Assembly: GCA_030681595.1 (NCBI GenBank)
Contig: JAUXSB010000003.1
Coordinates: 159,207 to 223,206, forward strand
Direction of reading: 5' to 3'
DNA: 64,000 nucleotides
Source of the DNA: Candidatus Omnitrophota bacterium
GTDB lineage: Bacteria > Omnitrophota > Gorgyraeia > Ghiorseimicrobiales > Ghiorseimicrobiaceae
Part shown: positions 3,497-55,512 of the stretch, in pieces
Layout: the number at the start of each line of letters is the position of its first letter
Numbering within the stretch: the stretch's first letter is position 1
Position numbers and translations under genes: made by a program
Notes under the pieces: generated by a model
The model's input: only the letters and a program-made list of their open reading frames with translations
Database searches by the model: none
Told to the model about the DNA's origin: nothing

Positions 3497-3551
3497 GGCG
3501 CCGAAATACCTTATTTCGGCATCCACCATGCATTTCATTAATGAAATGCAT
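3497..3551 (-). terminator. Two adjacent hairpins immediately 3' of the tmRNA. One is the perfect 24-nt palindrome ATGCATTTCATTAATGAAATGCAT at 3528-3551; the other is GCCGAAATA..TATTTCGGC at 3497-3520. They are likely the tmRNA terminator or processing stems.
   Basis: Perfect inverted repeats abutting the CCA end of ssrA, just before the amidase start. Confidence 0.5.
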
Positions 3552-3971
3552 GGTGGAGGTGCGCGGAATCGAACCGCGGTCCCTAAGCATCGCAATATTA
3601 GCCTCTACATGTTTAGTTTTACCTTTTAATCTTGCCCAAAATTACTTCGGTAAACGGAATCAATCAAGGGCCAGCCTTTTACGGTTTTGCTCTAGCGCCA
3701 AAGGCAGAACGCTAAAGCTATCCTGCTTACGACGCCTGGCCCCACCCCACAGGCAGGGAGGGCAGACGGGTTACCGTATGAAGGGTAACGCTTGTGGAAC
3801 CATTGACATCACAGGCCTAACGACTTCAATAGAAGCCATCAGCTTGTTAAATGTCAATGTCTCTGCTGGTTTTTCAGCATTTGTGTTTTGCAAGGCTTTT
3901 TAACGAGGCCTGCCTTGCCACCCCGACATGCCACCAATACTACTTTGCCTAAGTCGAAACCTTTCACCCCC
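3551..3971 (-). ncRNA. ssrA: tmRNA (SsrA), one-piece. The tag-peptide reading frame could not be delimited with confidence.
   Basis: The reverse complement starts GGGGGUGAAAGGUUUCGAC... and ends ...GGUUCGAUUCCGCGCACCUCCACCA. This gives a tRNA-like T-arm and an acceptor stem with a G3-U pair (Ala identity). smpB lies 160 nt downstream. Confidence 0.85.
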
Positions 3972-4110
3972 TTAATGAATCCCGAAGCTTCGGGACGAAT
4001 TAATCCCGTTGAGTGTGTCAAAATTATAGACCCTCTGGAATTTCTTTGAAATTCCGAGGACTTAGTCCCTGAAATTGCTTCGCAATTTCTAGGGGCGAAA
4101 CGGGACAATT
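3972..4110 (-). repeat. Structured intergenic repeat, family 1, copy A. It contains the CCCGAAGCTTCGGG palindrome plus the GGAATTT..AAATTCC and GGACTTAGTCC hairpin modules.
   Basis: Shares about 40 nt (ccctctggaatttc..gaaattccgaggacttagtccc) with copy C at 22975-23020, and the CCCGAAGCTTCGGG hairpin with copies B and C. Confidence 0.7.
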
Positions 4111-5664: not shown

Positions 5665-5746
5665 GCGGAGGTGGTGAAATGGCAGACACGCAGGTCTCAG
5701 AAGCCTGTGCCGTAAGGTATGAGGGTTCAACTCCCTCCCTCCGCAT
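5665..5746 (+). tRNA. tRNA-Leu (anticodon CAG), type II with a long variable arm.
   Basis: Acceptor stem GCGGAGG / CCTCCGC. Anticodon loop CTCAGAA. T-arm GAGGGTTCAACTCCCTC. Long variable arm. Confidence 0.85.
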
Positions 5747-6576: not shown

Positions 6577-6655
6577 AATAAGAAGTTATAAATTATAAAT
6601 TATGCGTTATAAGTTTAAAAACTCAAGAAACTCATCACTTATAACTTCTAACTCA
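6577..6655 (-). repeat. AT-rich heptad-periodic spacer element, family 3 (TTATAA-rich, containing AACTCATCACTT twice).
   Basis: Shares the AACTYATCACTT..TTATAA motifs with the leuB and leuC upstream spacers at 32645-32721 and 34681-34764. Confidence 0.55.
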
Positions 6656-10119: not shown

Positions 10120-10752
10120 TTATACTCTCAATATCTTATCCACTAATTCCCTTATTTTCTCTTGCGTCTTAATTATCTCTGTTTCCTGATAGACAATTTT
10201 AATCCTCGCCGGTTCTCTCTTGGCTAATTCCATATAGCCAAAATGCACTTTCTTATGATAAGCTAGCGGTTTATTTTCAATGCGGTCATTAATTTTCCCG
10301 CGCTGGTTTAGACCTCTACCTAAATCATTATCTAAAAGAATAGTTAAATCCGGCTTTATTCCCAAAGTAACGGCGTTACCAATTGCTTTTATTAACTCAA
10401 TATCTAATCCCCCGGCATAGCCCTGATAAGCAATGGTGGCGTCTAAAAACCTGTCCGATATCACAACCTTACCTTTCTTTAGCTCCGGCAGAATTACCTC
10501 TTTAACCAATTGAGCGCGCGCCGCCATATAAAGGCATACTTCGGTAATATCGGACATTTCTTTATTTTCGGCGTCTAAAAGAATGGCTCTTATCTTTTCG
10601 CCTATCTTAGTTGAGCCCGGCTCGCGCACATAAACAAAATCTACGTTCTTATCCCTTAGATATTCACAGAGCAATTTCGTGTGCGTGCTTTTTCCCGACC
10701 CTTCCGGCCCTTCAAATGTAATAAATTTACCTTTCATATCTTCCTGCGCCAA
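10120..10752 (-). CDS. tmk: Thymidylate kinase.
   Basis: P-loop FITFEGPEGSGKST. Confidence 0.9.
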   Translation of the reverse strand: MAQEDMKGKFITFEGPEGSGKSTHTKLLCEYLRDKNVDFVYVREPGSTKIGEKIRAILLDAENKEMSDITEVCLYMAARAQLVKEVILPELKKGKVVISDRFLDATIAYQGYAGGLDIELIKAIGNAVTLGIKPDLTILLDNDLGRGLNQRGKINDRIENKPLAYHKKVHFGYMELAKREPARIKIVYQETEIIKTQEKIRELVDKILRV

Positions 10753-12122
10753 GTTGTGCCTTCTTTTGTATCTTCTAAAATTATGCCTTTTTGCTCTAAT
10801 TCCTTACGGATTTTATCGGAAAGGGCAAAATTTTTATTCGCGCGCGCGCTGTTTCTTTCTAATATTTTTGCTTCTATCTCAGTATCAAAAATTTCTTCTT
10901 TTTTTAAGGATATCTTGAATATACCCAATAGCTCCGACAATACGCGCTTGGCCGGCAAAATAAAATCCGTATTTTCTATATTCTTATTAGCGGCATTTAC
11001 CAAATCAAAGATTGCTGCCAGCCCCTGCGGTGTATTGAAATCATCATCCATCGCCTCGATAAATTTATTTTTAATTTCTTCTATTTCCGTATTTTTTTTA
11101 CTTGATACTTGATACTTGATACCTGATACCTTTTTTTCTATCTTATCAATCAATATCGCAATCCGCTCTAATGCCTTTTTCGCCTCTTCTATTTTTTCTT
11201 CCGTGTAGTCTATGGGATGCGAATAATGCGCCGATAAAAAGAATAATTTTAATAAATCCGCGTTTTTATATTTAGCGATAAAATCTTTAATGGTAATAAA
11301 ATTCCCCAACGACTTAGCCATTTTTTGAGCATTAATCGTCAAAAGGCCGTGGTGAATCCAATAATTAGAAAAAGGCTTACCAGTGAGCGCCTCTGCCTGG
11401 GCGAGCTCATTTTCATGGTGGGGGAAAATCAGGTCGCGCCCTCCGGCATGGATATCCAGCGTCTCGGACTTTAAAAACTTCTGACTCATCACCGAACACT
11501 CTATATGCCATCCGGGGCGGCCCTTGCCCCAAGGACTATCCCAGAATGGCTCATCAGGCTTAGACATCTTCCATAAAGCAAAATCCAACGGGTCTTTTTT
11601 GGTCTCATCCGATTCTTTACGTACACCGCTAAACATCTCTTTTATTGCCTGGCCGGATAATTTACCGTAATCATTAAATTTACGCACGCTGAAATATACG
11701 CCGGTTTCAGTAACATAGGCATACCCCTTATTTATCAAAACCTCAATGTATTTAATCATTTCAGGGATATTTTCCGTAGCGCGCGGCTCACAATCCGCTT
11801 CACTAATCCCTAAAGCCGCTAAATCTTCGTAATATCTGGAAATATATTTTTCCGACAACCCCTTCCAATCAACTTTAAGCTCCTTCGCGCGGTTAATAAT
11901 CTTATCGTCAATATCGGTAATATTGCGTACAAAGTTAACTTTAAAACCGCGGTATTCTAAATAACGCCGCATTAGGTCAAAGATATAAAGGCTTCGGGCG
12001 TGGCCAATATGGCAGTCATCATAAACAGTTACGCCACAGGTATAGATATTAACTTTTGGCGGGGATAGCGGAACAAATTTCTCTTTTTTACGGGTGAGGG
12101 AATTATAGATATAAATTGGCAT
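10734..12122 (-). CDS. cysS: Cysteinyl-tRNA synthetase.
   Basis: HIGH (HIGHARS) and KMSKS motifs. An in-frame heptamer array lies at 11098-11130. Confidence 0.9.
   Translation of the reverse strand: MPIYIYNSLTRKKEKFVPLSPPKVNIYTCGVTVYDDCHIGHARSLYIFDLMRRYLEYRGFKVNFVRNITDIDDKIINRAKELKVDWKGLSEKYISRYYEDLAALGISEADCEPRATENIPEMIKYIEVLINKGYAYVTETGVYFSVRKFNDYGKLSGQAIKEMFSGVRKESDETKKDPLDFALWKMSKPDEPFWDSPWGKGRPGWHIECSVMSQKFLKSETLDIHAGGRDLIFPHHENELAQAEALTGKPFSNYWIHHGLLTINAQKMAKSLGNFITIKDFIAKYKNADLLKLFFLSAHYSHPIDYTEEKIEEAKKALERIAILIDKIEKKVSGIKYQVSSKKNTEIEEIKNKFIEAMDDDFNTPQGLAAIFDLVNAANKNIENTDFILPAKRVLSELLGIFKISLKKEEIFDTEIEAKILERNSARANKNFALSDKIRKELEQKGIILEDTKEGTTWRRKI
11098..11130 (-). repeat. In-frame heptanucleotide tandem array (CTTGATA x3 + CCTGATA) inside cysS, flanked by poly-T runs. 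It encodes VSGIKYQVSS.
   Basis: Direct 7-nt periodicity is visible in the sequence. The same GATACTTG motif appears in the ispD duplication. Confidence 0.7.
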
Positions 12123-12126
12123 ATTA

Positions 12127-12166
12127 CTCGCTTCATGCTACAAGCTACAAGCTTCAAACCTGTAGC
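12127..12166 (-). repeat. Heptad-periodic leader element, family 2 (GCTTCAT GCTACAA GCTACAA GCTTCAA ... CCTGTAGCC), immediately upstream of the cysS start.
   Basis: Related to the element upstream of asd at 31511-31584, with shared gcttcatgc..caagcttcaa..cctgtagcc. Confidence 0.6.
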
Positions 12167-12170
12167 CATT

Positions 12171-13365: not shown

Positions 13366-14154
13366 TTACCGCTTAATCCCTGCCTGCCGGCAGGCAGGCT
13401 TAACCCTCTTTGCTATCACCTCTGCAAACACCAAATCTTCCGGAGTAGTAATTTTTATATTAAAATATGAGCCTTCGCAAACTCTAACTTTATAGCCTAA
13501 TTTTTCTACCAAATAGGCATCGTCAGTCGCATCCAAATTCTTAAATTTATTATGGGCTTTTATTATTAAGTCCCGCCTAAAAACCTGCGGCGTCTGTATC
13601 TCCCAGATATTTCTTCTATCTAAAGTTTTATCAACAAAAATATTCTTTTTCTCGATACTTGCCTGCCCCGAAGCATCCGGGGATACTTGCCTGCCCCGAA
13701 GCATCCGGGGATACTTGATACTTTTAATCGTTGGCTTTAGAGGAACCCCGGCAATACAGGCACCGCAATCCTGTGCGCCCGAAACTACGCGGGAAATAAT
13801 CTCGCCAGTCACAAACGGGCGCGCTGCGTCGTGAATTAAAACAAAGTCGGTATCTTTATCTAAAAGTTTTAAGCCTGCTGCAACCGAATCCCTGCGCGTC
13901 TTCCCGCCGCGCCTTACACACTTCACCTTAGAAAGCCCATCTGCTTCTATTAACCTTCTGACCTTCGCTAAATTCTTATTATGCGCAAGGACTATAATTT
14001 TAGAAATAGCCGCATTCCTGCTTAATACCCTTAACGCGCGAATAATAATCGCGCAATCGTCAATACGTACAAACGGTTTAGCAACAGCGGTTTTTAGCCT
14101 TACGCCCAAGCCGGCCGCAGGGACAATCGCTTCTATCTTTACAGGCTTAGGCAT
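13366..14154 (-). CDS. ispD: 2-C-methyl-D-erythritol 4-phosphate cytidylyltransferase.
   Basis: The VPAAGLGVRL N-terminus is IspD-like. It contains a 28-bp tandem duplication. Confidence 0.85.
   Translation of the reverse strand: MPKPVKIEAIVPAAGLGVRLKTAVAKPFVRIDDCAIIIRALRVLSRNAAISKIIVLAHNKNLAKVRRLIEADGLSKVKCVRRGGKTRRDSVAAGLKLLDKDTDFVLIHDAARPFVTGEIISRVVSGAQDCGACIAGVPLKPTIKSIKYPRMLRGRQVSPDASGQASIEKKNIFVDKTLDRRNIWEIQTPQVFRRDLIIKAHNKFKNLDATDDAYLVEKLGYKVRVCEGSYFNIKITTPEDLVFAEVIAKRVKPACRQAGIKR
13657..13712 (-). repeat. 28-bp tandem duplication (GATACTTGCCTGCCCCGAAGCATCCGGG x2) inside ispD. The ORF stays open across both copies, read in different frames.
   Basis: Exact direct repeat. The unit carries CCCCGAAGCATCCGGGG, a near-copy of the family-1 hairpin CCCCGAAGCTTCGGGG. 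Confidence 0.8.
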
Positions 14155-17298: not shown

Positions 17299-17316
17299 GC
17301 CCCACCCCCATTGTAA

Positions 17317-17344
17317 CGTATAGCGTATAGCGTATAGCGTATAG
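17317..17344. repeat. Heptamer tandem array (CGTATAG x4) in the mlaF-mlaD spacer.
   Basis: Exact 7-nt tandem repeat. The same heptamer recurs in-frame in truA at 29799-29828. Confidence 0.8.
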
Positions 17345-17375
17345 TAAAATCCCGATAAATATTCTAAACGCTATA

Positions 17376-17465
17376 CCATAAGCCGGTAAGGCAATGGTTT
17401 GGCTTTCCATATAGCCAAAGCCATAAGCCGGTAAGGCAATGGTTTGGCTTTCCATATAGCCAAAG
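17376..17465. repeat. 45-bp perfect direct repeat x2 (ccataagccggtaaggcaatggtttggctttccatatagccaaag), each with an internal GGCTTT..AAAGCC hairpin.
   Basis: Two identical tandem copies. A partial third copy follows. Confidence 0.85.
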
Positions 17466-17495
17466 CCATAACCGCTAAACGCTGAAAATTAAAAC

Positions 17496-18269
17496 TTACT
17501 TAAGGTGCCCAAACACCAAATGTTCCGTTTCAGTAATAGGCCCAACAGCCGCTCCGGTAATAAATTGTTTTACTACCGGGTTATGTGTATTTTTTATTTC
17601 CTCCGGAGTCCCCTCGGCAATGATTTTACCCTGATAAAGCATAGCCATGTGGTCGCCGACTTTATAAGCGCTAGTCATATCATGCGTTACTACTACCGAA
17701 GTTATTTTTAATTTTGCCTGTAATTCCCGGATAAGGTCATTTATGGCATCTGCGGTGATGGGGTCAACCCCTGTAGTCGGCTCGTCATAAAGAATAATCT
17801 GCGGCCGCATGCAGATTGCCCGCGCAAGAGCTACGCGCTTTTTCATCCCTCCGGATAATTCTGAAGGCATAAAATCCTCTATGGCATGCAGGCCCACCAA
17901 GCTTAGCGATTCTTTCACGCGTTCAGCAATAGTTGCCTCATCCAATTCTGTATGTTCGTTTAAAACAAAGGCTACATTTTCGGCAACGGTTAAAGAATCA
18001 AAAAGCGCCCCGCCCTGAAAAACCATGCCTATCTTCATGCGTACTTTATTTAATTCCTTCTCTTTAAGTTTACCTATCGCAACGCCATCAACCTTAATAA
18101 CCCCCGTATCCGGACGAATTAAACCCACGATATGTTTAAGCAAGACCGATTTCCCGCAGCCGGACCTACCGATAATCACCTTAGTCTTTCCCTTTTCTAT
18201 TTTAAGGCCTACGCCATCTAAAACCTTGTGGCTACTAAATGATTTATGTACGCCGATGATTTCTATCAT
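17496..18269 (-). CDS. mlaF: ABC transporter ATP-binding protein MlaF. The start is trimmed to MIEIIGVHKSF.
   Basis: Walker A GRSGCGKS, the LSGGMKKR signature and Walker B ILYDEPT. Confidence 0.85.
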   Translation of the reverse strand: MIEIIGVHKSFSSHKVLDGVGLKIEKGKTKVIIGRSGCGKSVLLKHIVGLIRPDTGVIKVDGVAIGKLKEKELNKVRMKIGMVFQGGALFDSLTVAENVAFVLNEHTELDEATIAERVKESLSLVGLHAIEDFMPSELSGGMKKRVALARAICMRPQIILYDEPTTGVDPITADAINDLIRELQAKLKITSVVVTHDMTSAYKVGDHMAMLYQGKIIAEGTPEEIKNTHNPVVKQFITGAAVGPITETEHLVFGHLK

Positions 18270-18375
18270 AATATCACTTATTACACTGATTTTAGCGGCA
18301 AAAATAATCTGTGTAATCGCTTTTTCCCGCATAGCGGGATCCCGCTTCAACTTAAATGGCTTTGGCAAATTGCGC

Positions 18376-18443
18376 GCCAAACCACTGCCTTCTGGCTTGT
18401 GGCTTTGGCTATATTGAAAGCCAAACCACTGCCTTCTGGCTTG
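18376..18443. repeat. 24-bp direct repeat x2 (GCCAAACCACTGCCTTCTGGCTTG) separated by a TGGCTTTGGCTATATTGAAAGCCA hairpin, in the mlaE-mlaF spacer.
   Basis: Exact repeats. The hairpin resembles the GGCTTT..AAAGCC module of the 17376-17465 repeat. Confidence 0.8.
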
Positions 18444-18476
18444 CAAGTAAGCGGGAAAAATCTGCGCAATCTGCGC

Positions 18477-21694: not shown

Positions 21695-21707
21695 TACTGT
21701 TCTCCTC

Positions 21708-21800
21708 AATGAGCCCCGAAGCTTCGGGGCGAATTGATCCCGATAACAACAAAAAAATTTGGAACAAATTTTGAAGTGCTTTGTTATCGGGACAATCAAC
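21708..21800 (-). repeat. Structured intergenic repeat, family 1, copy B, in the clpC 5' UTR. It has the CCCCGAAGCTTCGGGG hairpin, the CCCGATAACAA..TTGTTATCGGG stem, and the AAAATTTGGAACAAATTTT palindromic core followed by GAAGTGCT.
   Basis: The core and hairpin are shared with copies C and D. The element fills the whole mcsB-clpC spacer, from the stop to the SD. Confidence 0.75.
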
Positions 21801-22897: not shown

Positions 22898-23075
22898 TCT
22901 CCTCAATGAGCGCATAATCCCGAAGCTTCGGGATTATTTGCGCGAATTGATGCCGAAAGCTACGAGAAAATTTGGAACCCTCTGGAATTTCACAAAGTGA
23001 AATTCCGAGGACTTAGTCCCGAGGAATTCTTTCGAATTCCTCGGGGCAAATTTTCAAGTGCTATGCTTTCGGTTT
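22898..23075 (-). repeat. Structured intergenic repeat, family 1, copy C, in the mcsB 5' UTR. It is the core with a roughly 70-nt hairpin-module insertion between GGAAC and CAAATTTT.
   Basis: gcgcataatCCCGAAGCTTCGGGattatttgcgc hairpin, GAAAATTTGGAAC...CAAATTTTCAAGTGCT core, and the inserted GGAATTTCAC..GTGAAATTCC / GGACTTAGTCC / GAGGAATTC..GAATTCCTC hairpins. Confidence 0.75.
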
Positions 23076-25277: not shown

Positions 25278-25347
25278 AAACTTAAAAATAAAAACGAAAA
25301 ACTAAAACTATAGTTTTGCCTTTTTACTTTTTAATTTTTAGTTTTTA

Positions 25348-28047: not shown

Positions 28048-29628
28048 TTAACTCTGCCTGTTATTCCTTAAAAAAAGCGGTAAAATGCTTAGATAGATCA
28101 GAAAAATCGCGATTAGAAAAGGCGTGGATATTAGTGGCTTTTCAATAATTCTCTTGCTTTTTGCCTCTGGATTTATATAGACTGACGCTAACTCAGTAGC
28201 AGCAATGTAGATTAGGCTATATTTTTTAATTAACATTTCGGATTTAGCATTGATAGAGCCGTCGTTTTCTCTGAATAAGATTATAACTTTGGCATGCGAT
28301 ACCGGGTCAAAATCGGCTTTAGGCCTTATTTCTTTTAACATTGTAGTTGATGTAGCGCGCTCGGAAAATACCCCTAAAATGCCACCGGCATAGTTTAAAT
28401 CAGAATAAATAATATCATCGCTTTCAGAATTATCCCTGATTATCCTTACGATCCCCTCAAATGACCTCCGGTCATAAATCCTGCTGTTTCTGACATCGCC
28501 TAAATCGCTACCACGATTCTCTTTTCGTAAATCCATAAAAACACCTATCTGCTTGAATAAATTTGACCCAAAGGCATCCATGCCGATATTTCCACTATTA
28601 AGGTTTATTACAGGCGAAAAAACAAAAAACAAAATCAATATTCCCGCCAGAAATATTCCCCTGCCCCGCCTTATTCTTAAAAATAGTTCGTAAATAAAAC
28701 TGCTGCATAAAAGGATATACCCTAATAATCCCTGAAAACAAAAATAACGGAACCTATAATTAAAGACCATCGGTAGCATGCCTAAAACAAAAAATAAAAA
28801 TAAATAATATATCTTTTTGTTTTTCAGGAAAAAACATAACCCAAGGATTGCTCCGAGATAAATAGCAAGATTAAACTCCAGGAAAGAGTTCTCGTTAAGG
28901 TTAACCGCGTGGAAATTGCTCCGGTTAATATAAAAACATGCTAATAACGGAGCGGCGATTACTATCGCGCCCAAGACAGCCTTAAGGCAAGCAGTCAGAT
29001 AACCCCTGTCAAATAATCCGTATAAAATAAATATTGGGATGAAAAATCCGCTTATTCCCGGATGTGTATAAAAAGAAAGCCCGAAAAGCATGATTGAAGC
29101 GGCAGTTTTACGCTGCCAGATGCAATAAAAAACGCCCAAACAAATAAGCAGGGCACAGGATGCGGCGTGAGTATTAACAAAGCCTAAATAAAAAGTATAC
29201 GATGAAGCAGCGATTAATACAGCGAAAAAAGCAAAAATTCCTGAAATTACTTTTCGGAAAATTAACCAAATAGCTAAAAGTGCTGCGGGATATAAAATAA
29301 AATCAAAAAATTTAGCAATAAATATTTTGGAAAAACCTACCTTGTATAACAGAAGCATAACTATATGCAGTAAAGGGGGATAAAGATGCGCGCGACCGAA
29401 AGGCGAAGCTTCCCAAAAGGCATGAGTTACGTAACCGCCTGCCTGATCAAACCCCAGCATCACTGAAAGATGATAATAGGTATCAATGAATAAAGGGAAA
29501 AACGGCAGCCTTAATAACTGAAGAATAAAAGATAAAATTATTATGCTTAAAGAAACGGTGTCCCAGCCGGAAAGGGTAAATTCCCTCCTTAAGGAAACCG
29601 GTATTAATATGTTACTTTTAGAAGGCAT
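28048..29628 (-). CDS. Large polytopic membrane protein of unknown function, about 13 TM helices followed by a soluble domain of roughly 150 aa. It could be a GT-C-type glycosyltransferase.
   Basis: Hydrophobicity pattern only. No diagnostic motif was recognised. Confidence 0.35.
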   Translation of the reverse strand: MPSKSNILIPVSLRREFTLSGWDTVSLSIIILSFILQLLRLPFFPLFIDTYYHLSVMLGFDQAGGYVTHAFWEASPFGRAHLYPPLLHIVMLLLYKVGFSKIFIAKFFDFILYPAALLAIWLIFRKVISGIFAFFAVLIAASSYTFYLGFVNTHAASCALLICLGVFYCIWQRKTAASIMLFGLSFYTHPGISGFFIPIFILYGLFDRGYLTACLKAVLGAIVIAAPLLACFYINRSNFHAVNLNENSFLEFNLAIYLGAILGLCFFLKNKKIYYLFLFFVLGMLPMVFNYRFRYFCFQGLLGYILLCSSFIYELFLRIRRGRGIFLAGILILFFVFSPVINLNSGNIGMDAFGSNLFKQIGVFMDLRKENRGSDLGDVRNSRIYDRRSFEGIVRIIRDNSESDDIIYSDLNYAGGILGVFSERATSTTMLKEIRPKADFDPVSHAKVIILFRENDGSINAKSEMLIKKYSLIYIAATELASVYINPEAKSKRIIEKPLISTPFLIAIFLIYLSILPLFLRNNRQS

Positions 29629-30365
29629 AATCCTCTGGCGGGAGCCGTGGGACCAAGAAGATTTCTTTTCCTGGTACGCAATATTTCACGCACAACATCC
29701 GGCTTGGCTTTTCTTTTCCCTATCTCAAGCAAAGTACCCACTATGGAACGTACCATGTTATAGAGGAAACCGTCGGCAGTGATATCTATGGCAATCAACG
29801 TATAGCGTGAAGCGTATAGCGTATAACTAACTTTCTTTATGGTTATCCTGCTGATATTTTTAATGGTATTTTTTACGGATGATCCGGATGCACAAAACGC
29901 GGCAAAGTCATGCCTGCCTAAAAGTATTTTTGTGGCTTGGCGCATTTTGCTCAAATCTAATTTATAAGAAAAACGGTACGTATAATTACGCAGCAGTGCC
30001 GACGGATAATCCTGGCTTAAAATTAAATAACGGTAGGTTTTTGACTTGGCGGAAAAACGCGCATGGAAACCTAAAGGCGCATCTTCGGCATCCGAAATAG
30101 AAATGTCTTCAGGCAACAAGCTATTTAACGCTTTTCGGATATTTTCGGGGGAGATTTTAGAATTAGTGTTAAAATTCGCGGTTTGTCCGAACGCATGAAC
30201 CCCTGAATCAGTCCTGCCGGAGGCAATAAGATTCATTTTTTCCTGAAGAATCTTAGCAAGGGCCGCTTCTATTGTTTCTTGGATTGTACGGCGGGTATTT
30301 TTTTGTTTCTGCCAACCGGCATAATTTGTGCCGTCGTATTCTATGACTAATTTGATATTACGCAT
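29604..30365 (-). CDS. truA: tRNA pseudouridine(38-40) synthase TruA.
   Basis: MRNIKLVIEYDGTNYAGWQ N-terminus and the catalytic GRTDSGVHA motif. Confidence 0.9.
   Translation of the reverse strand: MRNIKLVIEYDGTNYAGWQKQKNTRRTIQETIEAALAKILQEKMNLIASGRTDSGVHAFGQTANFNTNSKISPENIRKALNSLLPEDISISDAEDAPLGFHARFSAKSKTYRYLILSQDYPSALLRNYTYRFSYKLDLSKMRQATKILLGRHDFAAFCASGSSVKNTIKNISRITIKKVSYTLYASRYTLIAIDITADGFLYNMVRSIVGTLLEIGKRKAKPDVVREILRTRKRNLLGPTAPARGLCLLKVTY
29799..29828 (-). repeat. In-frame heptamer array (CGTATAG CGTGAAG CGTATAG CGTATAA) inside truA. It encodes SYTLYASRYTL.
   Basis: 7-nt periodicity. The same CGTATAG heptamer occurs in the intergenic array at 17317-17344. Confidence 0.7.
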
Positions 30366-31495: not shown

Positions 31496-31510
31496 ATAGT
31501 TCTTCTCAAT

Positions 31511-31584
31511 CCTGCTTCATGCTTCAAGCCGCAAGCTTCAAGCTTTAAACTTTTTTGCCTGTAGCCTACAACATGTAGCTTGCA
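31511..31584 (-). repeat. Heptad-periodic leader element, family 2 (GCTTCAT GCTTCAA GCCGCAA GCTTCAA GCTTTAA ... GCCTGTAGCCTACAACATGTAGCTTGC), upstream of asd.
   Basis: Shares its motifs with 12127-12166 and contains the palindrome GTAGCCTACAACATGTAGC. Confidence 0.6.
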
Positions 31585-31589
31585 GCAAA

Positions 31590-32639: not shown

Positions 32640-32644
32640 CTTCT

Positions 32645-32721
32645 CCTCACATTCCTTTTAGAATTTATAAGTTAGAGGTTATGAATTATAAATTAAAAAC
32701 TTATAACTTATCACTTATAAT
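32645..32721 (-). repeat. AT-rich heptad-periodic spacer, family 3, upstream of leuB (TTATAA-rich; AACTTATCACTT).
   Basis: Shared with 6577-6655 and 34681-34764. Confidence 0.55.
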
Positions 32722-33219
32722 TTATAACTGCTTTTTTACCCAGGCCATCAAACCGCCCGAATTTATTAACTCTTGCATAAACGGGGCATACCCTTGGGTT
32801 TGATAAATCTTATTCTGAGTAATATTCCTTATCTCTCCTTTTTCTAAATTAACCTCTAAAATATCACCCTCATTTATTTTATCGGTATCCCTGCACTCTA
32901 ATATCGGCAGGCCGATATTGATGGAGTTACGATAAAAGATACGGGCAAAGCTTTTGGCAACTACACAAGAAATTCCAGTACCTTTAATGGAAATCGGCGC
33001 ATGCTCGCGCGATGAACCGCAGCCAAAATTTTTACCGGCAACAATAATGTCGCCGGATGACACAGATTTACTAAACTCCGGCCTAATCCCCTCCATACAA
33101 TTCTTGCCTAATTCTTTGGGATCGGTCGTCACCAAAAATTTCGCCGGAATTATCTCATCCGTATTTAGATCATCGCCGAATTTATAGACTTTCCCCTTAA
33201 GTGTCATTTTTATTATCAA
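32722..33219 (-). CDS. leuD: 3-isopropylmalate dehydratase small subunit (short, archaeal-type LeuD).
   Basis: Aconitase swivel domain of about 165 aa, adjacent to leuC. Confidence 0.8.
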   Translation of the reverse strand: MIIKMTLKGKVYKFGDDLNTDEIIPAKFLVTTDPKELGKNCMEGIRPEFSKSVSSGDIIVAGKNFGCGSSREHAPISIKGTGISCVVAKSFARIFYRNSINIGLPILECRDTDKINEGDILEVNLEKGEIRNITQNKIYQTQGYAPFMQELINSGGLMAWVKKQL

Positions 33220-33387: not shown

Positions 33388-34680
33388 TTAACCCACTACC
33401 TCATCCGGATGCGCAATCCTGCCTTTTACCGCGCTTGCCGCAGCCACCGCCGGATTGGATAGATACACTTCGCTTTTTAAATCTCCCATCCTGCCGACAA
33501 AATTCCTGTTAGTTGTAGCAAGGCAGCGTTCACCCGCGGTTAAAATTCCGGCATGCCCGCCTAAGCAAGGGCCGCAAGTAGGCGTTGTTACTACTGCGCC
33601 TGATTTTACAAAGATATCAATCAGGCCTTCCTTAATTGCCTGTAAGTATATATTCTGTGTTGCCGGTATCACAATACAACGTGTATAAGGATTAACTTTT
33701 CTCCCCTTTAAAATTTTTGCGGCCAGGCGTAAATCCGAAATCCTTCCGTTGGTACAAGAACCTATTACCACCTGATCTAATTCTATATTACTTAATTGCC
33801 TTACCTGCTTAACATTGCTGGGAAGATGCGGGCAGGCAACCAAAGGCCCTATCTTCGAAACATCATATTCCTTGATTTGCGCATAAATAGCATCTTTATC
33901 GGATTTTAGATTTTTGAATTTTGAATTGTAATTTTGCCTTTTGCCTTTTACCTTTTGCGTTTCTTTGACATAGTTAAAGGTCGTCTCATCCGGCTCAATT
34001 ATCCCGGACTTTCCGCCGGCTTCAATCGCCATATTGCACATAGTAAATCTGTCATCCATCGGCAGGCTGCTAATTACATCGCCGCTAAATTCCATTGCCC
34101 GATAGGCAGCGCCGTCAACGCCGATATCGCCTATTGTATGCAAAATTAAATCCTTACCACCGACCCATTTATTTAATTTGCCATAAAAAATAAATTTTAT
34201 TGTTTCCGGGACCCTCAACCATACCCGTCCAGTTACCCAAGAAGCGGCTAAATCAGTCGAGCCAACACCGCTGGAAAATGCGCCTAATGCGCCATAAGTA
34301 CAAGTATGAGAATCGGCTCCAATAACTAAATCTCCGGGGCCAACTAAACCTAATTCCGGAAGAAGCGCATGTTCAATACCCATACGGCCCACTTCATAGT
34401 AATGCTTAATTTTATATTTTGCGGCAAAATCTTTTAATATTTTTGCCTGTTGCGCGCTCTTTTTATCCTTTGCCGGAACAAAATGATCGGGAACTAAAAC
34501 AATCTTATCTTTGATTGCCGGATTAATCCCTAATTTTTCAAATTCCTCTATGGCTAAGGGCGCGGTAATATCATTGCCTAAAGATAAATCTACCTTTGCC
34601 CAGATAAATTCACCTACCCGAATATCTTTCTTATCAGGCGTGTGAGCCAATAATATTTTTTCAGTAATTGTGTAAGGCAT
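33388..34680 (-). CDS. leuC: 3-isopropylmalate dehydratase large subunit (LeuC, about 430-aa type).
   Basis: Aconitase-family Fe-S ligand cysteines (..CTNGR.., ..TCGPCLG..). Confidence 0.8.
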   Translation of the reverse strand: MPYTITEKILLAHTPDKKDIRVGEFIWAKVDLSLGNDITAPLAIEEFEKLGINPAIKDKIVLVPDHFVPAKDKKSAQQAKILKDFAAKYKIKHYYEVGRMGIEHALLPELGLVGPGDLVIGADSHTCTYGALGAFSSGVGSTDLAASWVTGRVWLRVPETIKFIFYGKLNKWVGGKDLILHTIGDIGVDGAAYRAMEFSGDVISSLPMDDRFTMCNMAIEAGGKSGIIEPDETTFNYVKETQKVKGKRQNYNSKFKNLKSDKDAIYAQIKEYDVSKIGPLVACPHLPSNVKQVRQLSNIELDQVVIGSCTNGRISDLRLAAKILKGRKVNPYTRCIVIPATQNIYLQAIKEGLIDIFVKSGAVVTTPTCGPCLGGHAGILTAGERCLATTNRNFVGRMGDLKSEVYLSNPAVAAASAVKGRIAHPDEVVG

Positions 34681-34764
34681 GTAATATCTAAGTTAGAAGT
34701 TATGAATTATGAGTTACAAGTTATGAGTTAAAAACTAATAACTTATCACTTCTCATTCATAACT
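34681..34764 (-). repeat. AT-rich heptad-periodic spacer, family 3, upstream of leuC. It has six tandem TAACTYN heptads and can fold as a long imperfect hairpin.
   Basis: In the mRNA sense it reads TAACTCA TAACTTG TAACTCA TAATTCA TAACTTC TAACTTA, preceded by GTTATGA-type heptads complementary to them. Confidence 0.6.
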
Positions 34765-36000
34765 TCACTTGAATTTTTTTACTACTAAAGTGGCGTTATG
34801 CCCGCCAAAACCCAATGAATTAGACATCGCCACTTCTACTTTTGTGTTGCGGGCTTTATTAGGTACGTAGTCTAAATCGCACTCAGGGTCAGGATTTTCG
34901 TAGTTGGTTGTAGGCGGGATAATATCATTTTTTATAGCTAAAGCGCAGATAACAAACTCGATTCCTCCGGCCGCGCCCAATAAATGTCCGGTCATGGATT
35001 TCGTAGAACTTACCGCTATTTTTTTAGCGTATTCACCGAATAATTTCTTAATGGCTAAAGTTTCAATCCGGTCATTAAGCAATGTGGATGTTCCATGAGC
35101 ATTTATATAAGAAACATCTTTGGGCAAAATACGCGCGTCTTTTAAAGAAAGTGCCATCGCTCTTACTGCACCGTCAGCGGTTGAATCAGGTGCCGTAATA
35201 TGATAGGCGTCTCCGCTCATGCCGTAGCCGACAATCTCGGCATATATTTTTGCCTTACGTTTTAAAGCATGCGGTAGCGACTCTAACAACACAACTCCCG
35301 AACCCTCAGACATAACAAAGCCGTCTCGGTCGCGGTCAAAAGGCCTGCTTGCTTTCTCCGGCTCATTATTTCTCTTAGAAAGCGCCTTTAAAGCACAGAA
35401 TCCACCGATGCCCAGATACGTAATCGCACTTTCCGTGCCTCCGGCAAGCATTAAATCGGCATCGCCCCTTTGAATTATCTTAAAGGCATCTCCTACAGCA
35501 TGCGAACCTGAAGCACAGGCAGTCGCAACGCAGGAATTCGGCCCTTTAAAACCTAAATCTATTGATATGTGCCCCGCTGCCTCGTTAACAATAAGCATCG
35601 GGATAAGAAACGGGGACAGCCTTGAGGGGCCCTTTTCAAGATAAACTTTAAACTGTTCTTCTATTATATGCAAGCTTCCTATGCCCGAACCAACAACAAC
35701 ACCCGCGCGGTTTTTATCTATTGCGGATGAATCTAGTCCCGCATCATTAAATGCTTCTCTTGCCGCGGCCACCGCATACTGCACAAATTTATCTACATGC
35801 CTTACTTCTTTCGCGGAGAAATACTTTAAAGGATCAAACCCTTTTACCTCCCCGGCAATCTGCGAATCAAAAGCTGAGGCATCAAAAACAGTAATCCTAC
35901 CTATACCGCTTTTGCCGGCAAGTAAATTTTCCCATAGGGTTTTTGTATCATTTCCTAACGGCGATATGCTGCCTAGCCCCGTAATAACTACTCTTTCCAT
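34765..36000 (-). CDS. fabF: 3-oxoacyl-ACP synthase II.
   Basis: KAS II active-site Cys (ATACASG) and His/His motifs. Confidence 0.9.
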   Translation of the reverse strand: MERVVITGLGSISPLGNDTKTLWENLLAGKSGIGRITVFDASAFDSQIAGEVKGFDPLKYFSAKEVRHVDKFVQYAVAAAREAFNDAGLDSSAIDKNRAGVVVGSGIGSLHIIEEQFKVYLEKGPSRLSPFLIPMLIVNEAAGHISIDLGFKGPNSCVATACASGSHAVGDAFKIIQRGDADLMLAGGTESAITYLGIGGFCALKALSKRNNEPEKASRPFDRDRDGFVMSEGSGVVLLESLPHALKRKAKIYAEIVGYGMSGDAYHITAPDSTADGAVRAMALSLKDARILPKDVSYINAHGTSTLLNDRIETLAIKKLFGEYAKKIAVSSTKSMTGHLLGAAGGIEFVICALAIKNDIIPPTTNYENPDPECDLDYVPNKARNTKVEVAMSNSLGFGGHNATLVVKKFK

Positions 36001-37233: not shown

Positions 37234-37254
37234 TTTAACCTCACTCCATTAAAA

Positions 37255-37303
37255 GTAACCAGAAACCAGATACCGGTAACCAGAAAAAAATTCTGGTATA
37301 TGG
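37255..37303. repeat. GTAACCA/CTGGTTAC heptad element, family 4 (gtaaccagaaaccagataccggtaaccag..ctggtat), in the fabD-fabG spacer.
   Basis: Related to 41585-41643 through the shared AACCAGATACC and GGTTAC repeats. Confidence 0.6.
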
Positions 37304-37320
37304 CAACTGAAAACTGGCTT

Positions 37321-38259
37321 CTAATTTAAAATGTCTTCCGCCTTTTCTATATTCGCTACCTCTAAACTTGGTTCTATTTTCCTTAAAATACCTTTGAGGG
37401 TCTTACCCGGCCCAATCTCAAAAAATCTCTTTACCCCTTGCGCCAACATAAAACGTACCGAATCCTCCCAAAGCACCGAAGATTTTACCTGTAAAGCAAG
37501 CTTTGCGCGCATGTCCTCAATTGAGACAAACGGCTTAGCCGTAACATTGCTAATTACCTCGGGATGTGGCATCCTAAAAGCGGTTTTTTCTAGAATTCCC
37601 CCCAACTTTATGCTTGCTTCTTCCATTAATGTAGAATGGAATGCGCCGCTGATCCCCAATTCTATCAGGCGCTTTGCGCCTTTTGCTTGGGCCAAAACAG
37701 AGAATTTATCTACATTTTCTACGTTACCGGTAACCACCACCTGTCCCGGGCAATTAAGATTAGCGATTTCGTTTCCCGCCTCTTTAGATAAATTCTTTAC
37801 CGTTTCCAAATCAAGGCCTAGCACTGCCACCATTTTACCGGGATATTTTTGTGCAGCTTGGCTCATCAGTTCTGAACGCTTTTTAACCAATACGAGTGCA
37901 TCGTCAAACTTTATCGCCCCGCAGGCAACCAATGCCGAATATTCCCCTAAACTTAGGCCCGCAGCATACCTGACACCTGCCTGTCCCACCACAGGTGGGG
38001 ACACTTGACACTTAACACTTGTCTTCAGCGCTTCAAATGCGGCAATACTCGTTACTAAAATTGCGAGCTGGCAATTATTAGTTTGAGTAAGCGCATCCAA
38101 TGGGCCATCAAAACATAATTTAGACAAATTAAAACCTAAAACTTCATCTGCTCTGTCAAAGACCTGTTTTGCTTGAAGATATCTCTCATATAAATCCCTG
38201 CCCATACCCACATATTGCGCGCCTTGGCCGGGAAAAATATAAGCAATGTTTTCTACCAT
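37321..38259 (-). CDS. fabD: Malonyl-CoA:ACP transacylase.
   Basis: GLSLGEYSAL active-site motif. Confidence 0.9.
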   Translation of the reverse strand: MVENIAYIFPGQGAQYVGMGRDLYERYLQAKQVFDRADEVLGFNLSKLCFDGPLDALTQTNNCQLAILVTSIAAFEALKTSVKCQVSPPVVGQAGVRYAAGLSLGEYSALVACGAIKFDDALVLVKKRSELMSQAAQKYPGKMVAVLGLDLETVKNLSKEAGNEIANLNCPGQVVVTGNVENVDKFSVLAQAKGAKRLIELGISGAFHSTLMEEASIKLGGILEKTAFRMPHPEVISNVTAKPFVSIEDMRAKLALQVKSSVLWEDSVRFMLAQGVKRFFEIGPGKTLKGILRKIEPSLEVANIEKAEDILN

Positions 38260-41560: not shown

Positions 41561-41584
41561 ACATCCTCACTTTGTTCGGAAAAA

Positions 41585-41643
41585 ACCAGATACCTGTTTC
41601 CAGACACCGGAATATATAAATCTGGTTACTGGTTACTGGTTAC
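41585..41643. repeat. Family 4 heptad element (aaccagatacctgtttccag...ctGGTTACTGGTTACTGGTTAC), overlapping the rsmD stop.
   Basis: TGGTTAC x3 tandem array. Related to 37255-37303. Confidence 0.65.
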
Positions 41644-42177
41644 TTTTTGATATAAAGATAATAGCGTATCTCCGTATTTGTATTGCTTAAAAAGCGTAAA
41701 ATCACCTGATTTTTCCGGCAGGAAGTCCTTTTTAAAATGTTGAACCAAGATAAAACCGGAAGGCGTTAATATATCATAAGCAGCCAATGTTTGCAAGGTT
41801 TTTTTTGCCATATCCTGATAATAAGGCGGATCCATAAAAATAATGTCGAACTTCCGGCCTTCTTTACTCAAGCGCGCTAAAGCCTGCTGGGTATCCAAGC
41901 CGATAAGGCTGTATCCTGCTTCGCCCAGTAAAGAAAAATTATCCTTAATTATCTTTATGCATTCCGGGTCTTTTTCTACAAGCACCAATTCTTTAACCCC
42001 CTGCGATAAGGCCTCAATGCCAATTGCCCCTGAACCCGCAAATAGCTCTAAAAAAGACAATCCCTCGATGCCGCCTAATATATCAAATAAAGCCTTCCTC
42101 ACCTTATCCTGGCTAGGCCTTATCTCTTTGGGCATTTTAATCACCCTGCCTTTATATTTTCCGGAAATTACACGCAT
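41626..42177 (-). CDS. rsmD: 16S rRNA (guanine966-N2)-methyltransferase RsmD.
   Basis: SAM-binding motif LFAGSGAIGIEALSQG and the DPPY motif. Confidence 0.85.
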   Translation of the reverse strand: MRVISGKYKGRVIKMPKEIRPSQDKVRKALFDILGGIEGLSFLELFAGSGAIGIEALSQGVKELVLVEKDPECIKIIKDNFSLLGEAGYSLIGLDTQQALARLSKEGRKFDIIFMDPPYYQDMAKKTLQTLAAYDILTPSGFILVQHFKKDFLPEKSGDFTLFKQYKYGDTLLSLYQKVTSNQ

Positions 42178-53019: not shown

Positions 53020-53117
53020 TTCTTTATAATTCTTTATTCCTATCCCGAAGCTACGGTCGGGATAAATTCCGGCACACAGGTTATGTCAACTACCGTTTCC
53101 ATAACCTGTGCCGTTAT

Positions 53118-55389: not shown

Positions 55390-55512
55390 ATGACGACACG
55401 AGTTATAAGATCCGCCGTAGGCGGAGACGTAACTCGCATGTCGGAATTGATACCGACAGCTACAAAGAAAATTTGGAACAAATTTTTGCAGTGTTTTGCT
55501 GTCGGTATATAC
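55390..55512 (-). repeat. Structured intergenic repeat, family 1, copy D, in the 5' UTR of the zinc-ribbon gene. It has the ATACCGACAGC..GCTGTCGGTAT stem, the GAAAATTTGGAACAAATTTTTGCAGTGTT core and a CCGCCGTAGGCGG hairpin.
   Basis: Core identical to copy B over AAAATTTGGAACAAATTTT. The architecture is hairpin, core, then SD. Confidence 0.7.

Follow-up and report, generated by a model that had tools for sequence, protein, structure and literature searches.

Gene content and period-7 arrays of the window

The DNA described here is a stretch of 64,000 nucleotides (the window) from contig JAUXSB010000003.1 (positions 159,207 to 223,206) of the assembly GCA_030681595.1 of a Candidatus Omnitrophota bacterium, and the subject of this analysis is the set of tandem heptanucleotide (heptamer) arrays found in its intergenic spacers and, in frame, within several of its genes. 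The window is made up of housekeeping genes in a one-strand array, with all of the protein genes on the minus strand, and includes genes for tRNA synthetases, the fab, leu and trp operons, recG, recJ, an addA-like gene and clpC. CysS and TruA were found to be 100% identical to proteins of a Candidatus Omnitrophota metagenome-assembled genome (on a 307-kb contig), with close homologs all belonging to Omnitrophota, which supports the non-cyanobacterial setting proposed in a preliminary description of this DNA. Syntenic DNA of relatives was used for comparison, with identities in CysS or TruA of 82% (L081 and L109), 80% (L083), 75% (L084, the outgroup) and ~60% (L110).

Heptamer arrays were confirmed to occur in the window far beyond chance and with specificity for a period of 7 nt. 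Using Tandem Repeats Finder (TRF), about 20 of the 47 rows reported had a period of 7, including arrays at 12137-12157, 31514-31545, 32679-32727, 34690-34730 and 37257-37286 and two with 100% matches, at 41622-41644 and at 17317-17344 (CGTATAG ×4). For each coordinate given in the preliminary description, such an array was thereby located there or no more than a few bases away. A lag self-match scan (score of at least 10) identified 10 period-7 arrays compared to 0.15 expected from 40 dinucleotide shuffles of the window, so that the excess holds against a shuffled control within the window. The same scan gave no arrays for the other periods from 3 to 13, one for period 15 and none for periods 16 to 18; three were found for period 14, because 14 is a multiple of 7. 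Exact period-7 arrays (at least two copies plus 5 nt) numbered three, with 0.0 expected. About 7% of the window is non-coding and the period-7 signal is mostly located there, with intergenic self-match values at lags 7, 14 and 21 of 0.323, 0.303 and 0.296, respectively, against a background of ~0.27, while the lag spectrum of coding DNA showed the usual 3-nt periodicity alone. The individual features are listed in Table 1.

Table 1. Heptamer arrays and palindromes of the window (coordinates as positions in the window; z, folding z-score relative to shuffled sequence).
Feature	Coordinates	Strand	Gene	Lag-7 match	Fold (kcal/mol)	z	Remarks
Palindrome, metG–tatD spacer	6577..6655	(-)		0.61	-19.2	-4.0	
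cysS array	11099..11131	(-)	10734-12122				TRF 11099-11129, TACTTGA ×4.4, 95% matches
Short hairpin upstream of cysS	12123..12170	(-)		0.63		-2.0	GCTTGTA/GCATGAA units
ispD composite insert	13654..13723	(-)	13366-14154				TRF 13654-13717, 28 nt ×2.3, 100%
(CTATACG)×4 array upstream of mlaD	17299..17380	(-)				-2.2	Pairs with upstream TATAGCG arm
Palindrome, ftsX–ABC-ATPase spacer	25278..25347	(-)		0.68		-3.7	
truA array	29799..29826	(-)	29604-30365				TRF 29799-29825
Palindrome, leuB–asd spacer	31496..31589	(-)		0.56	-32.1	-3.6	
Palindrome, leuD–leuB spacer	32640..32721	(-)					Same family as 34681-34764
leuC arrays	33902..33962	(-)	33388-34680				Aconitase family; surface loop
Palindrome, fabF–leuC spacer	34681..34764	(-)		0.66	-21.9	-4.3	
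Palindrome, fabD–fabG spacer	37234..37320	(-)			-29.4	-5.0	xxxCCAG left arm, CTGGTTx right arm
fabD composite insert	37965..38020	(-)	37321-38259				
(AGTAACC)×3 array and arm	41561..41647	(-)				-2.5	TRF 100% matches

In a separate set of 64 unrelated cysS loci (~1 Mb), 27 period-7 arrays were counted compared to 1-9 for every other period. These arrays are concentrated in a small number of genomes, where they frequently form inverted pairs, with L058 (Geobacter sp.), L044 (Atribacteria), L045, L080 (Nitrospiraceae), L067 and L072 as the loci noted. Units such as AATTCAA/TTTTGAA and ATATACG are found in more than one phylum and correspond to units of the window and of Nostoc 7120.

Arrays within genes

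Five enzymes, CysS, IspD, TruA, LeuC and FabD, were found to possess in-frame arrays with a single arm. Those of leuC and fabD were absent from the preliminary description, as was the palindromic pairing of the intergenic arrays reported below. The orientation of the intragenic arm is in each case the one that is stop-free in all three frames, and it is translated as a 7-residue-periodic loop; a TGA in the reverse orientation of AAGTATC accounts for the bias in orientation. The protein sites concerned are permissive ones, namely the CysS linker, a loop of IspD, the tip of a beta-hairpin in TruA, a loop of LeuC and a loop of FabD before the active site.

Within the linker that precedes the anticodon-binding domain, the coding strand of cysS reads A7-(GGTATCA)2(AGTATCA)2AGTA-A8, which is translated as VSGIKYQVSS. 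This linker exists in all of the CysS proteins compared, and the array fills a variable linker with zero net residues relative to solved CysS. In truA, the units TATACGC TATACGC TTCACGC TATACGT encode SYTLYASRYT at the beta-hairpin tip, where the protein is ~8 residues longer than TruA of E. coli. The AlphaFold model of TruA (mean predicted local distance difference test score, pLDDT, of 89.7) has strands at residues 168-182 and 187-197, with a pLDDT of ~71 at the tip. The leuC gene carries two adjoining in-frame arrays, AAAAGGT AAAAGGC AAAAGGC followed by AATTCAA AATTCAA AAATCTA, with a net insertion of 4 residues relative to 4nqy.

The inserts of ispD and fabD are composite. That of ispD reads AAGTATC AAGTATC CCCGGATGCTTCGGGGCAGGC AAGTATC CCCGGATGCTTCGGGGCAGGC AAGTATC, in which heptamers alternate with a 21-nt hairpin element (21 + 7 = 28, the period detected by TRF). 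The array earlier ascribed to this gene is therefore no simple heptamer array, its AAGTATC units being interleaved with two copies of the 21-nt element. IspD has ~24 extra residues here, with residues 148-171 having no counterpart in B. subtilis IspD (5ddt). The fabD insert reads AAGTGTT AAGTGTC AAGTGTC CCCACCTGTGGTGGGACAGGC AGGTGTC AGGTATG, and through it FabD gains ~11 residues directly before the active-site motif GLSLGE. It had been suggested that the intragenic copies add about 10 residues and are flanked by homopolymer runs. The first figure needs to be revised, with values ranging from none in CysS to those given above for TruA and IspD, and the second feature is clear in cysS alone (A7 and A8 of the coding strand) and weak in ispD.

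On its 5' side, the cysS array is bordered by the sequence A_AAA_AAG (GAA AAA AAG, 11130-11140), which is a classic bacterial -1 slippery heptamer, and the -1 frame would stop at a TAA right after the array. It was set aside as a programmed frameshift site, as there is no hairpin there in the window, the hairpin of L081 is ~20 nt away and the A-run probably just results from the Lys-Lys codons flanking the linker. A second hypervariable region of CysS was observed in Omnitrophota, where it separates the helical bundle from the C-terminal domain (alignment columns ~455-497), with inserts of 10-30 residues in many homologs (e.g., RYVIVKAEVIELRVSSGDVSVR), though not in the CysS of the window.

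A 21-nt hairpin element nested in the arrays

The 21-nt element comprises CC, a 5-6-bp stem enclosing a 3-5-nt loop, and the terminal motif RCAGGC. Every copy lies in frame on the coding strand, where one heptamer ends and the next begins, with no target duplication. There are three copies in the window, two in ispD (13709..13689 and 13681..13661) and one in fabD. Further copies were identified in cysS of L081 and, flanked by heptamers, in L084. A pattern scan of metagenome contigs returned 24 matches, of which 20 without heptamer flanks and stem were taken as chance; the remaining four are all within open reading frames (ORFs), namely cysS, where the element is part of a tandem 28-mer, and three others. 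Units of the AAGTATC type accompany this element in no fewer than seven different genes or genomes.

The stem of the element is variable in sequence but constrained in pairing. Over its six pairs, 90.5% of cells are paired compared to 66% in shuffles, a value reached by none of 500 shuffles, and compensatory changes occur in four of the six pairs, with slid controls giving 38-55%. Filled and empty sites differing by exactly 21 nt were observed for cysS (filled in L081, empty in the window) and for fabD (filled in the window, empty in L109), in agreement with the earlier suggestion of a small element inserting in frame. The ispD site of L081 contains two different GC hairpins. A covariance model of the element and its heptamer flanks detected no more diverged copies in the window or in 16 related loci.

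Two further candidates were discarded. A hairpin followed by CAGGC at 25923, found by an unbiased scan in coding sequence without heptamers, was treated as chance, and the resemblance of the junction CAGGC/AAGTAT to a splice-site motif was rejected as coincidence.

Palindromic arrays in intergenic spacers

Read on the coding strand, the spacers contain two inverted heptamer arrays flanking an A/T-rich centre and so form imperfect palindromes, the arms of which mirror each other variant by variant. The folds predicted for them are long hairpins in which a mismatch recurs roughly every 7 nt. The spacers fold far better than shuffled sequences, with z-scores of -3.6 to -5.0 in five of them and weaker values in four.

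The palindrome between fabF and leuC illustrates this organization. It reads (34764..34681) AGTTATG AATGAGA AGTGATA AGTTATT AGTT-TTTAA-CTCATAA CTTGTAA CTCATAA TTCATAA, with arms that are 82% complementary and 3 nt apart, and none of 200 shuffles folds as well. Its right arm (34730..34689) consists of six TAACTNN-type units and ends 17 nt 5' of the leuC start codon. The metG–tatD spacer has the sequence AGTTAGA AGTTATA AGTGATG .. TTTAA .. ACTTATA ACGCATA ATTTATA, and these two palindromes, together with that of the leuD–leuB spacer, are copies of one element. The segments 32658-32729 and 34693-34764 align over 72 nt at 79% identity, non-repeat centre included, with a 14-nt (two-unit) indel, and they also match at an offset of 14 nt. 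The metG–tatD copy is linked to 32697-32736 and 34691-34765 by both direct and inverted matches.

Other spacers possess other units in the same layout. The ftsX–ABC-ATPase spacer (25347..25278) is arranged as (TAAAAAC-type)n - TATAG - (GTTTTTA-type)n, and the leuB–asd spacer has units of the GCTTGAA/GCTTGCG type with stem mismatches recurring about every 7 nt. The fabD–fabG palindrome is 88% complementary to 41624-41647. The (AGTAACC)×3 array overlaps the stop codon of an rsmD-like gene (41626-42177) and pairs with a downstream ..GGTATCTGG arm followed by T6. This element (41608..41589) is the only one with a T-run and the only one of the heptamer elements to be flagged as terminator-like; as a group, the spacer hairpins are not typical terminators.

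In the hairpin upstream of mlaD, a 45-nt tandem element (17376-17478, ×2.3) interrupts the left arm. A related 44-nt unit (×2) with reversed orientation is found in the adjacent upstream spacer (18357-18443). The two units are 92-93% complementary, are both missing from the orthologous spacers of L081 (61 and 54 nt), and look like another small hairpin element that landed in the repeats and duplicated in tandem. The 316-aa ORF at 17496-18446 (TTG start) is probably over-called, with the orthologous ABC ATPase having 257 aa in L081 and 253 aa in L084, and on this basis ~18270-18476 was read as a spacer with the 44-nt repeats.

The same sites in related genomes

In relatives with identities of 60-82%, heptamer arrays were found at the same sites in genes and in the same spacers. 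Each array is uniform in its units, but from one genome to another the units usually differ. At the cysS site, GGTATCA of the window is represented by (GGTGTCA)n and the 21-nt element in L081 and by (GTAACCA)n and an insert in L083. The fabD site has AAGTGTC in the window, five heptamers of AAGTACC-AAGTATC without the 21-mer in L109 and (AAGTCGC)×5 in L110, while at the leuC site AAAAGGC is kept in L109 and (ACACGTC)×3 is present in L110. The ispD site has AAGTATC in the window compared to TCAAAGC/GCAAAAC heptamers in the outgroup. At the truA site of L110 there are four copies of CGCTATA, so that TATACGC is kept, and among 29 TruA proteins of Omnitrophota the 7-aa-periodic loop reads as a translation of TATACGC, TATCCGC or TATCACC, being missing in a few.

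The spacers behave similarly. Orthologous metG–tatD, fabF–leuC, leuC–leuD and ftsX–ABC spacers contain heptamer palindromes with different units or lengths, and the palindromic architecture is also present in L081, L083, L109 and L110. The metG–tatD spacer of L081 is an 80-nt heptamer palindrome with GGGxTAC/GTxxACC units, and the ftsX–ABC spacer of L109 has the same unit family over 115 nt compared to 70 nt in the window. Upstream of cysS, the spacer is 18 nt in L081 and a 132-nt heptamer palindrome (-44 kcal/mol) in L083; upstream of mlaD, L081 has 61 nt with neither the heptamer array nor the 45-nt element. In the outgroup L084, genes are closely packed or overlap, with almost no spacers, and IspD, of 229 aa, is without the 21-nt inserts. 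Other Omnitrophota loci have at most one array each.

Judged from these alignments, the array segments are ancestral as sites but are not conserved in sequence or length. The idea that they represent new insertions private to this genome is contradicted, as the CysS, TruA, IspD, FabD and LeuC sites are heptamer-derived in relatives down to ~60% identity.

Dispersal and stability of the units

Exact units are shared by three pairs of unrelated loci compared to 0.31 expected (P ~0.002). Intergenic 17315-17343 and the truA array share 27 of 29 nt (93%) and also have flank and register in common. No copy-number differences were found in five arrays among three strains of a relative that are 99.6-99.7% identical and come from different samples, which suggests that the tracts are not hypermutable. 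Between L001 and L086 (~96% nucleotide identity in the flanks), the cysS linker is completely different.

A further difference was noticed downstream of rpsI between L111 and L113 (~99.7% identical), where a segment of ~100 nt containing a hairpin and xxGACGA-type heptamers is present in one and absent in the other (L111 ~11900-12070). It is near contig ends and so may represent either a real insertion polymorphism or an assembly break.

Other features of the window

Searching the entire window with Rfam at gathering thresholds identified only the tmRNA and two tRNAs, with no match at the hairpins. The tmRNA (3551-3971) adjoins smpB on the minus strand, and the tRNA at 5665-5745 is the sole plus-strand gene found. 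GC skew is negative throughout the window, which fits with one replichore and genes co-oriented with replication. The only part with near-zero GC skew (AT skew +0.14) contains a 526-aa ORF (28048-29628) without a Pfam match that is kept in L109 (529 aa) and holds A-rich low-complexity tracts of period 6/7 at 28617-28634 and 28784-28809. There is also a second dispersed family of spacer repeats, GC-rich and palindromic (3970-4100, 21704-21765, 22917-23050, 53042-53071 and 55442-55478), with motifs including ATCCCGAAGCTTCGGGA.., TGAAATTCCGAGGACTTAGTCCC.. and GCGAATTGATxCCGA..AAATTTGGAAC, which is unrelated to the heptamers.

Origin and maintenance of the arrays

The reading that we favor, with a probability of roughly 55%, is that of a lineage-wide heptamer-repeat system that is mostly neutral or selfish and is filtered by selection. 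Tolerant sites would retain their arrays over long times while individual units are gained, lost and homogenized, likely by slipped-strand mispairing and/or conversion between arrays. Slippage had been put forward in the preliminary description, and traces of such unit-wise change are seen in the 14-nt indel and in the uniform but differing units at one site, while no fast slippage or phase variation was seen. The arms of the palindromes may be held matched through template switching or through selection for pairing. Units and the 21-nt element would spread between arrays by some copy process, which could be ectopic conversion using shared heptamers as homology or could involve a trans-acting enzyme. 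Within genes, selection would leave only insertions that are in frame, stop-free and in surface loops, and in the spacers the hairpins may secondarily stabilize or punctuate long polycistronic mRNAs. Since the outgroup and other Omnitrophota loci are poor in arrays, the elements were taken as non-essential.

A number of points weigh against such a system. It does not account for the unit being 7 nt, the idea of a polymerase footprint being the sole published one as far as the original survey is relayed in later papers. Slippage was not seen directly, the near-identical strains showing no difference in copy number. A slip of one unit in either direction in cysS, fabD or ispD would cause a frameshift in an essential gene, so that the long persistence of arrays there does not fit easily with pure neutrality. 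Among the ORFs of the window (40 of the 64 ORFs by Pfam and the remainder through synteny with annotated relatives), no transposase, reverse transcriptase, primase-polymerase or other candidate enzyme was found. The presence of hairpins with different units in the same spacers and the covariation of the 21-nt stem could mean a selected RNA function, and the cysS linker of L001 and L086 looks more like cassette replacement than stepwise slippage.

A more tentative possibility is that the arrays and the 21-nt hairpin are the footprint of an enzymatic activity, present in some bacterial lineages, by which DNA is written or copied in steps of 7 nt and palindromes are built. Its smallest mobile unit would then be the 21-nt element (3 × 7), with its constrained stem and fixed RCAGGC end, and this unit would be able to enter essential genes in frame. 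If true, such an activity would explain the excess of heptamers in cyanobacteria, Xanthomonas, Beggiatoaceae, Geobacter and others, as well as the recurrence of the same units (e.g., TTTTGAA) across phyla.

Alternatively, the spacer hairpins, and possibly the 21-nt hairpin, could be selected RNA elements that are maintained because they work, whether as intercistronic stabilizers or processing sites, as attenuators, or as sites for an RNA-binding protein with a 7-nt register. The recurrence of hairpins in the same spacers across genomes despite differing units is in keeping with this, as are the mirrored arms, the covarying stem of the 21-nt element, the terminator anatomy of one hairpin and the position of TAACTNN-type right arms near start codons in three elements, similar to the repeats described in PMC4679880. 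Regulatory effects of heptamer repeats have also been reported in Nostoc (bioRxiv 10.1101/2022.06.06.494920). However, the outgroup and other Omnitrophota are without these spacers, the unit families share no common motif and the hairpins gave no match in Rfam. Terminator-like sites were not enriched in a promoter and terminator scan (25 compared to 20.9 expected), and Shine-Dalgarno-like motifs were equally frequent before hairpin-preceded genes (4/9) and all genes (30/64). Arrays within essential coding regions are also hard to explain as RNA regulators. We regard this reading as unlikely.

It is similarly doubtful that the palindromes and the 21-nt hairpin are non-autonomous elements, comparable to REPINs (inverted doublets of repetitive extragenic palindromes, REPs) or miniature inverted-repeat transposable elements, that are moved by an enzyme encoded elsewhere in the genome. 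A hairpin-recognizing Y1 transposase of the RAYT (REP-associated tyrosine transposase) or IS200/IS605 type would be an example, with RCAGGC as the analog of the conserved REP tetranucleotide. Such movement would fit with the near-identical dispersed copies, the precise insertion with filled and empty sites, the conserved tail and variable but paired stem of the 21-nt element, the sporadic distribution even among close relatives, and the nesting of other small elements, such as the 45-nt element, in the arrays. Set against this, transposase-like genes are absent from the 64 kb and from the Pfam-annotated genes of the loci L081-L084 and L109-L113, and no target-site duplication was seen. The stems differ between copies in one genome, unlike those of REP families, and units at one site change in concert, which is the behavior of arrays and not of transposed copies.

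A lower probability still is given to independent local slippage of whichever 7-mer is resident, with the sharing of units being coincidence or convergence on the few heptamers that are stop-free and tolerated. An excess of heptamer repeats is widespread and has been ascribed to slippage in the survey relayed in PMC4679880 and PMC4692102. Many unit families occur only once in the window and the statistic for unit sharing is only moderately significant. Slippage alone does not, however, explain the palindromic hairpins of the spacers. Nor does local origin sit well with the joint occurrence of AAGTATC-type units and the same 21-nt element in different genes and genomes, with a match between two spacers that includes their non-repeat centre, or with the flank and register common to the pair at 17315 and 29797.

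That the arrays are contingency loci, hypermutable tracts switching genes by frameshift or by change of promoter spacing, is very improbable. Heptanucleotide tracts do drive phase variation in the hmw genes of Haemophilus (PMC8262952), and the arrays are open in all frames, but the genes are essential housekeeping enzymes and not surface structures, the arrays are short (3-5 units), and the near-identical strains gave no differences in length. Assembly or sequencing artefacts, for which no supporting point was found, can be practically dismissed, as the arrays are much shorter than reads, the essential genes stay in frame and the same sites carry arrays in independent NCBI, ENA, JGI and Logan assemblies.

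Comparison with known repeat systems

The excess of heptamers in scattered bacteria has been known since 1990 and 2007, without a mechanism or agreed function, and no literature linking Omnitrophota with heptamer repeats was found among the papers searched. The preliminary description had compared the arrays to the short tandemly repeated repetitive (STRR) sequences, which Mazel and colleagues reportedly described in 1990 as families of tandem heptamers at many intergenic sites in heterocystous cyanobacteria. The resemblance holds at the level of class, in that several dispersed unit families coexist in one genome, although the phylum here is a different one. None of the units that we take to be the STRR1-3 consensus heptamers (CCCCAGT, TTGGTCA and CAACAGT) has a tandem copy in the window, even when allowing 2 mismatches in 14 nt, and to our knowledge neither coding-region arrays nor palindromic pairing are part of the STRR description. 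The 21-nt element has its own parallel in the small dispersed repeats (SDRs) of Nostoc punctiforme, which Elhai and colleagues are said to have described in 2008 as hairpin-forming, apparently mobile sequences of 21-27 nt, often embedded in other repeats including tandem heptamers. A hairpin of ~21 nt and filled or empty orthologous sites are common to both, a likeness of kind that is drawn from description and not from sequence. Unlike the SDRs, the window element has variable stems that covary, a fixed RCAGGC tail and, in the copies found, in-frame positions in genes, and it belongs to a different phylum.

Tandem heptamers are the dominant class of long simple sequence repeats (SSRs) in prokaryotes, with a sporadic and mostly intergenic distribution, and a polymerase footprint favoring 7-nt slippage was hypothesized as the cause (Mrazek, Guo and Shah, 2007, as cited in PMC4679880 and PMC4692102). 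To the extent that this survey is described there, the arrays of the window resemble its long SSRs in being head-to-tail, above chance and of a length favored over neighboring ones. They differ in that most intergenic arrays are paired as palindromes and in that in-frame arrays occur in essential enzymes at sites shared by a lineage; Omnitrophota, by the same accounts, were not among the genomes surveyed. Direct repeats of TAACTGA have been described in marine Beggiatoaceae and in some Cyanobacteria and Bacteroidetes, as runs of 2-6 heptamers just 5' of start codons, some over upstream stop codons, with related heptamers seldom repeated and an RNA role proposed in Beggiatoaceae (MacGregor, 2015, PMC4679880). 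Copies in reverse orientation are occasionally translated in ORFs, giving for example the peptide LSVISYQ, which resembles SSIKYQV encoded in the window. The degenerate TAACTNN runs at 34730 and 6602, the former being the right arm before leuC, are also similar. However, no exact tandem of TAACTGA was found in the window (one 14-mer was within 2 mismatches), which instead has many unit families in a palindromic layout. Intragenic copies are in core enzymes here and in hypothetical proteins or protein termini for TAACTGA. With regard to the replacement of Shine-Dalgarno sequences by TAACTGA, five of the nine hairpin-preceded genes are without such a motif compared to 34/64 overall. Other named heptamers are the GGGAATC and GGGGAYT repeats (PMC4692102) and units of Nostoc such as TTTTGAA (bioRxiv 10.1101/2022.06.06.494920). 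As no named unit of the STRR, TAACTGA, GGGAATC/GGGGAYT or Nostoc types is tandemly repeated in the window, its arrays are of the same kind as these families but not members of them.

With regard to palindromic elements, REPs and REPINs are short intergenic hairpin repeats occurring as inverted doublets and associated with RAYT transposases (PMC3116915). They share with the present elements a short conserved motif next to a hairpin and dispersed copies in a genome. Inverted arms forming hairpins are present here as well, but as heptamer arrays of variable length with 7-nt periodicity and not as one conserved REP sequence of ~20-25 nt; the stems are not conserved and copies occur in genes, and no RAYT gene was found in the 64-kb window.

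What is new here is the phylum, the palindromic organization, the covarying 21-nt element, and arrays that occupy orthologous sites in core enzymes and turn over their units in concert. The lineage provides clean comparative material, as the same arrays can be traced from site to orthologous site, from 99.7% down to ~60% identity, in five essential enzymes and several spacers. These comparisons show the persistence of sites, the concerted replacement of units, palindromic pairing and a 21-nt hairpin nested in arrays, for which both filled and empty sites exist, and through them an anecdotal oddity becomes testable. The nearest parallel for the intragenic copies is given by the Rickettsia palindromic elements, selfish palindromic repeats of ~100-150 bp that, as summarized in PMC10969869, are found in frame in unrelated housekeeping genes, where their conserved encoded peptide adds surface segments compatible with fold and function (Ogata et al., 2000). 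Compared with these elements as summarized there, the inserts of the window are likewise in frame in housekeeping genes, but they are of 21-72 nt, are built of 7-nt units and encode peptides that differ between sites and genomes. As in Rickettsia, repeat DNA can supply and reshape the surface loops of core enzymes, in this case in a free-living or host-dependent phylum, and for annotators such 7-residue-periodic loops are to be recognized as repeat-derived.

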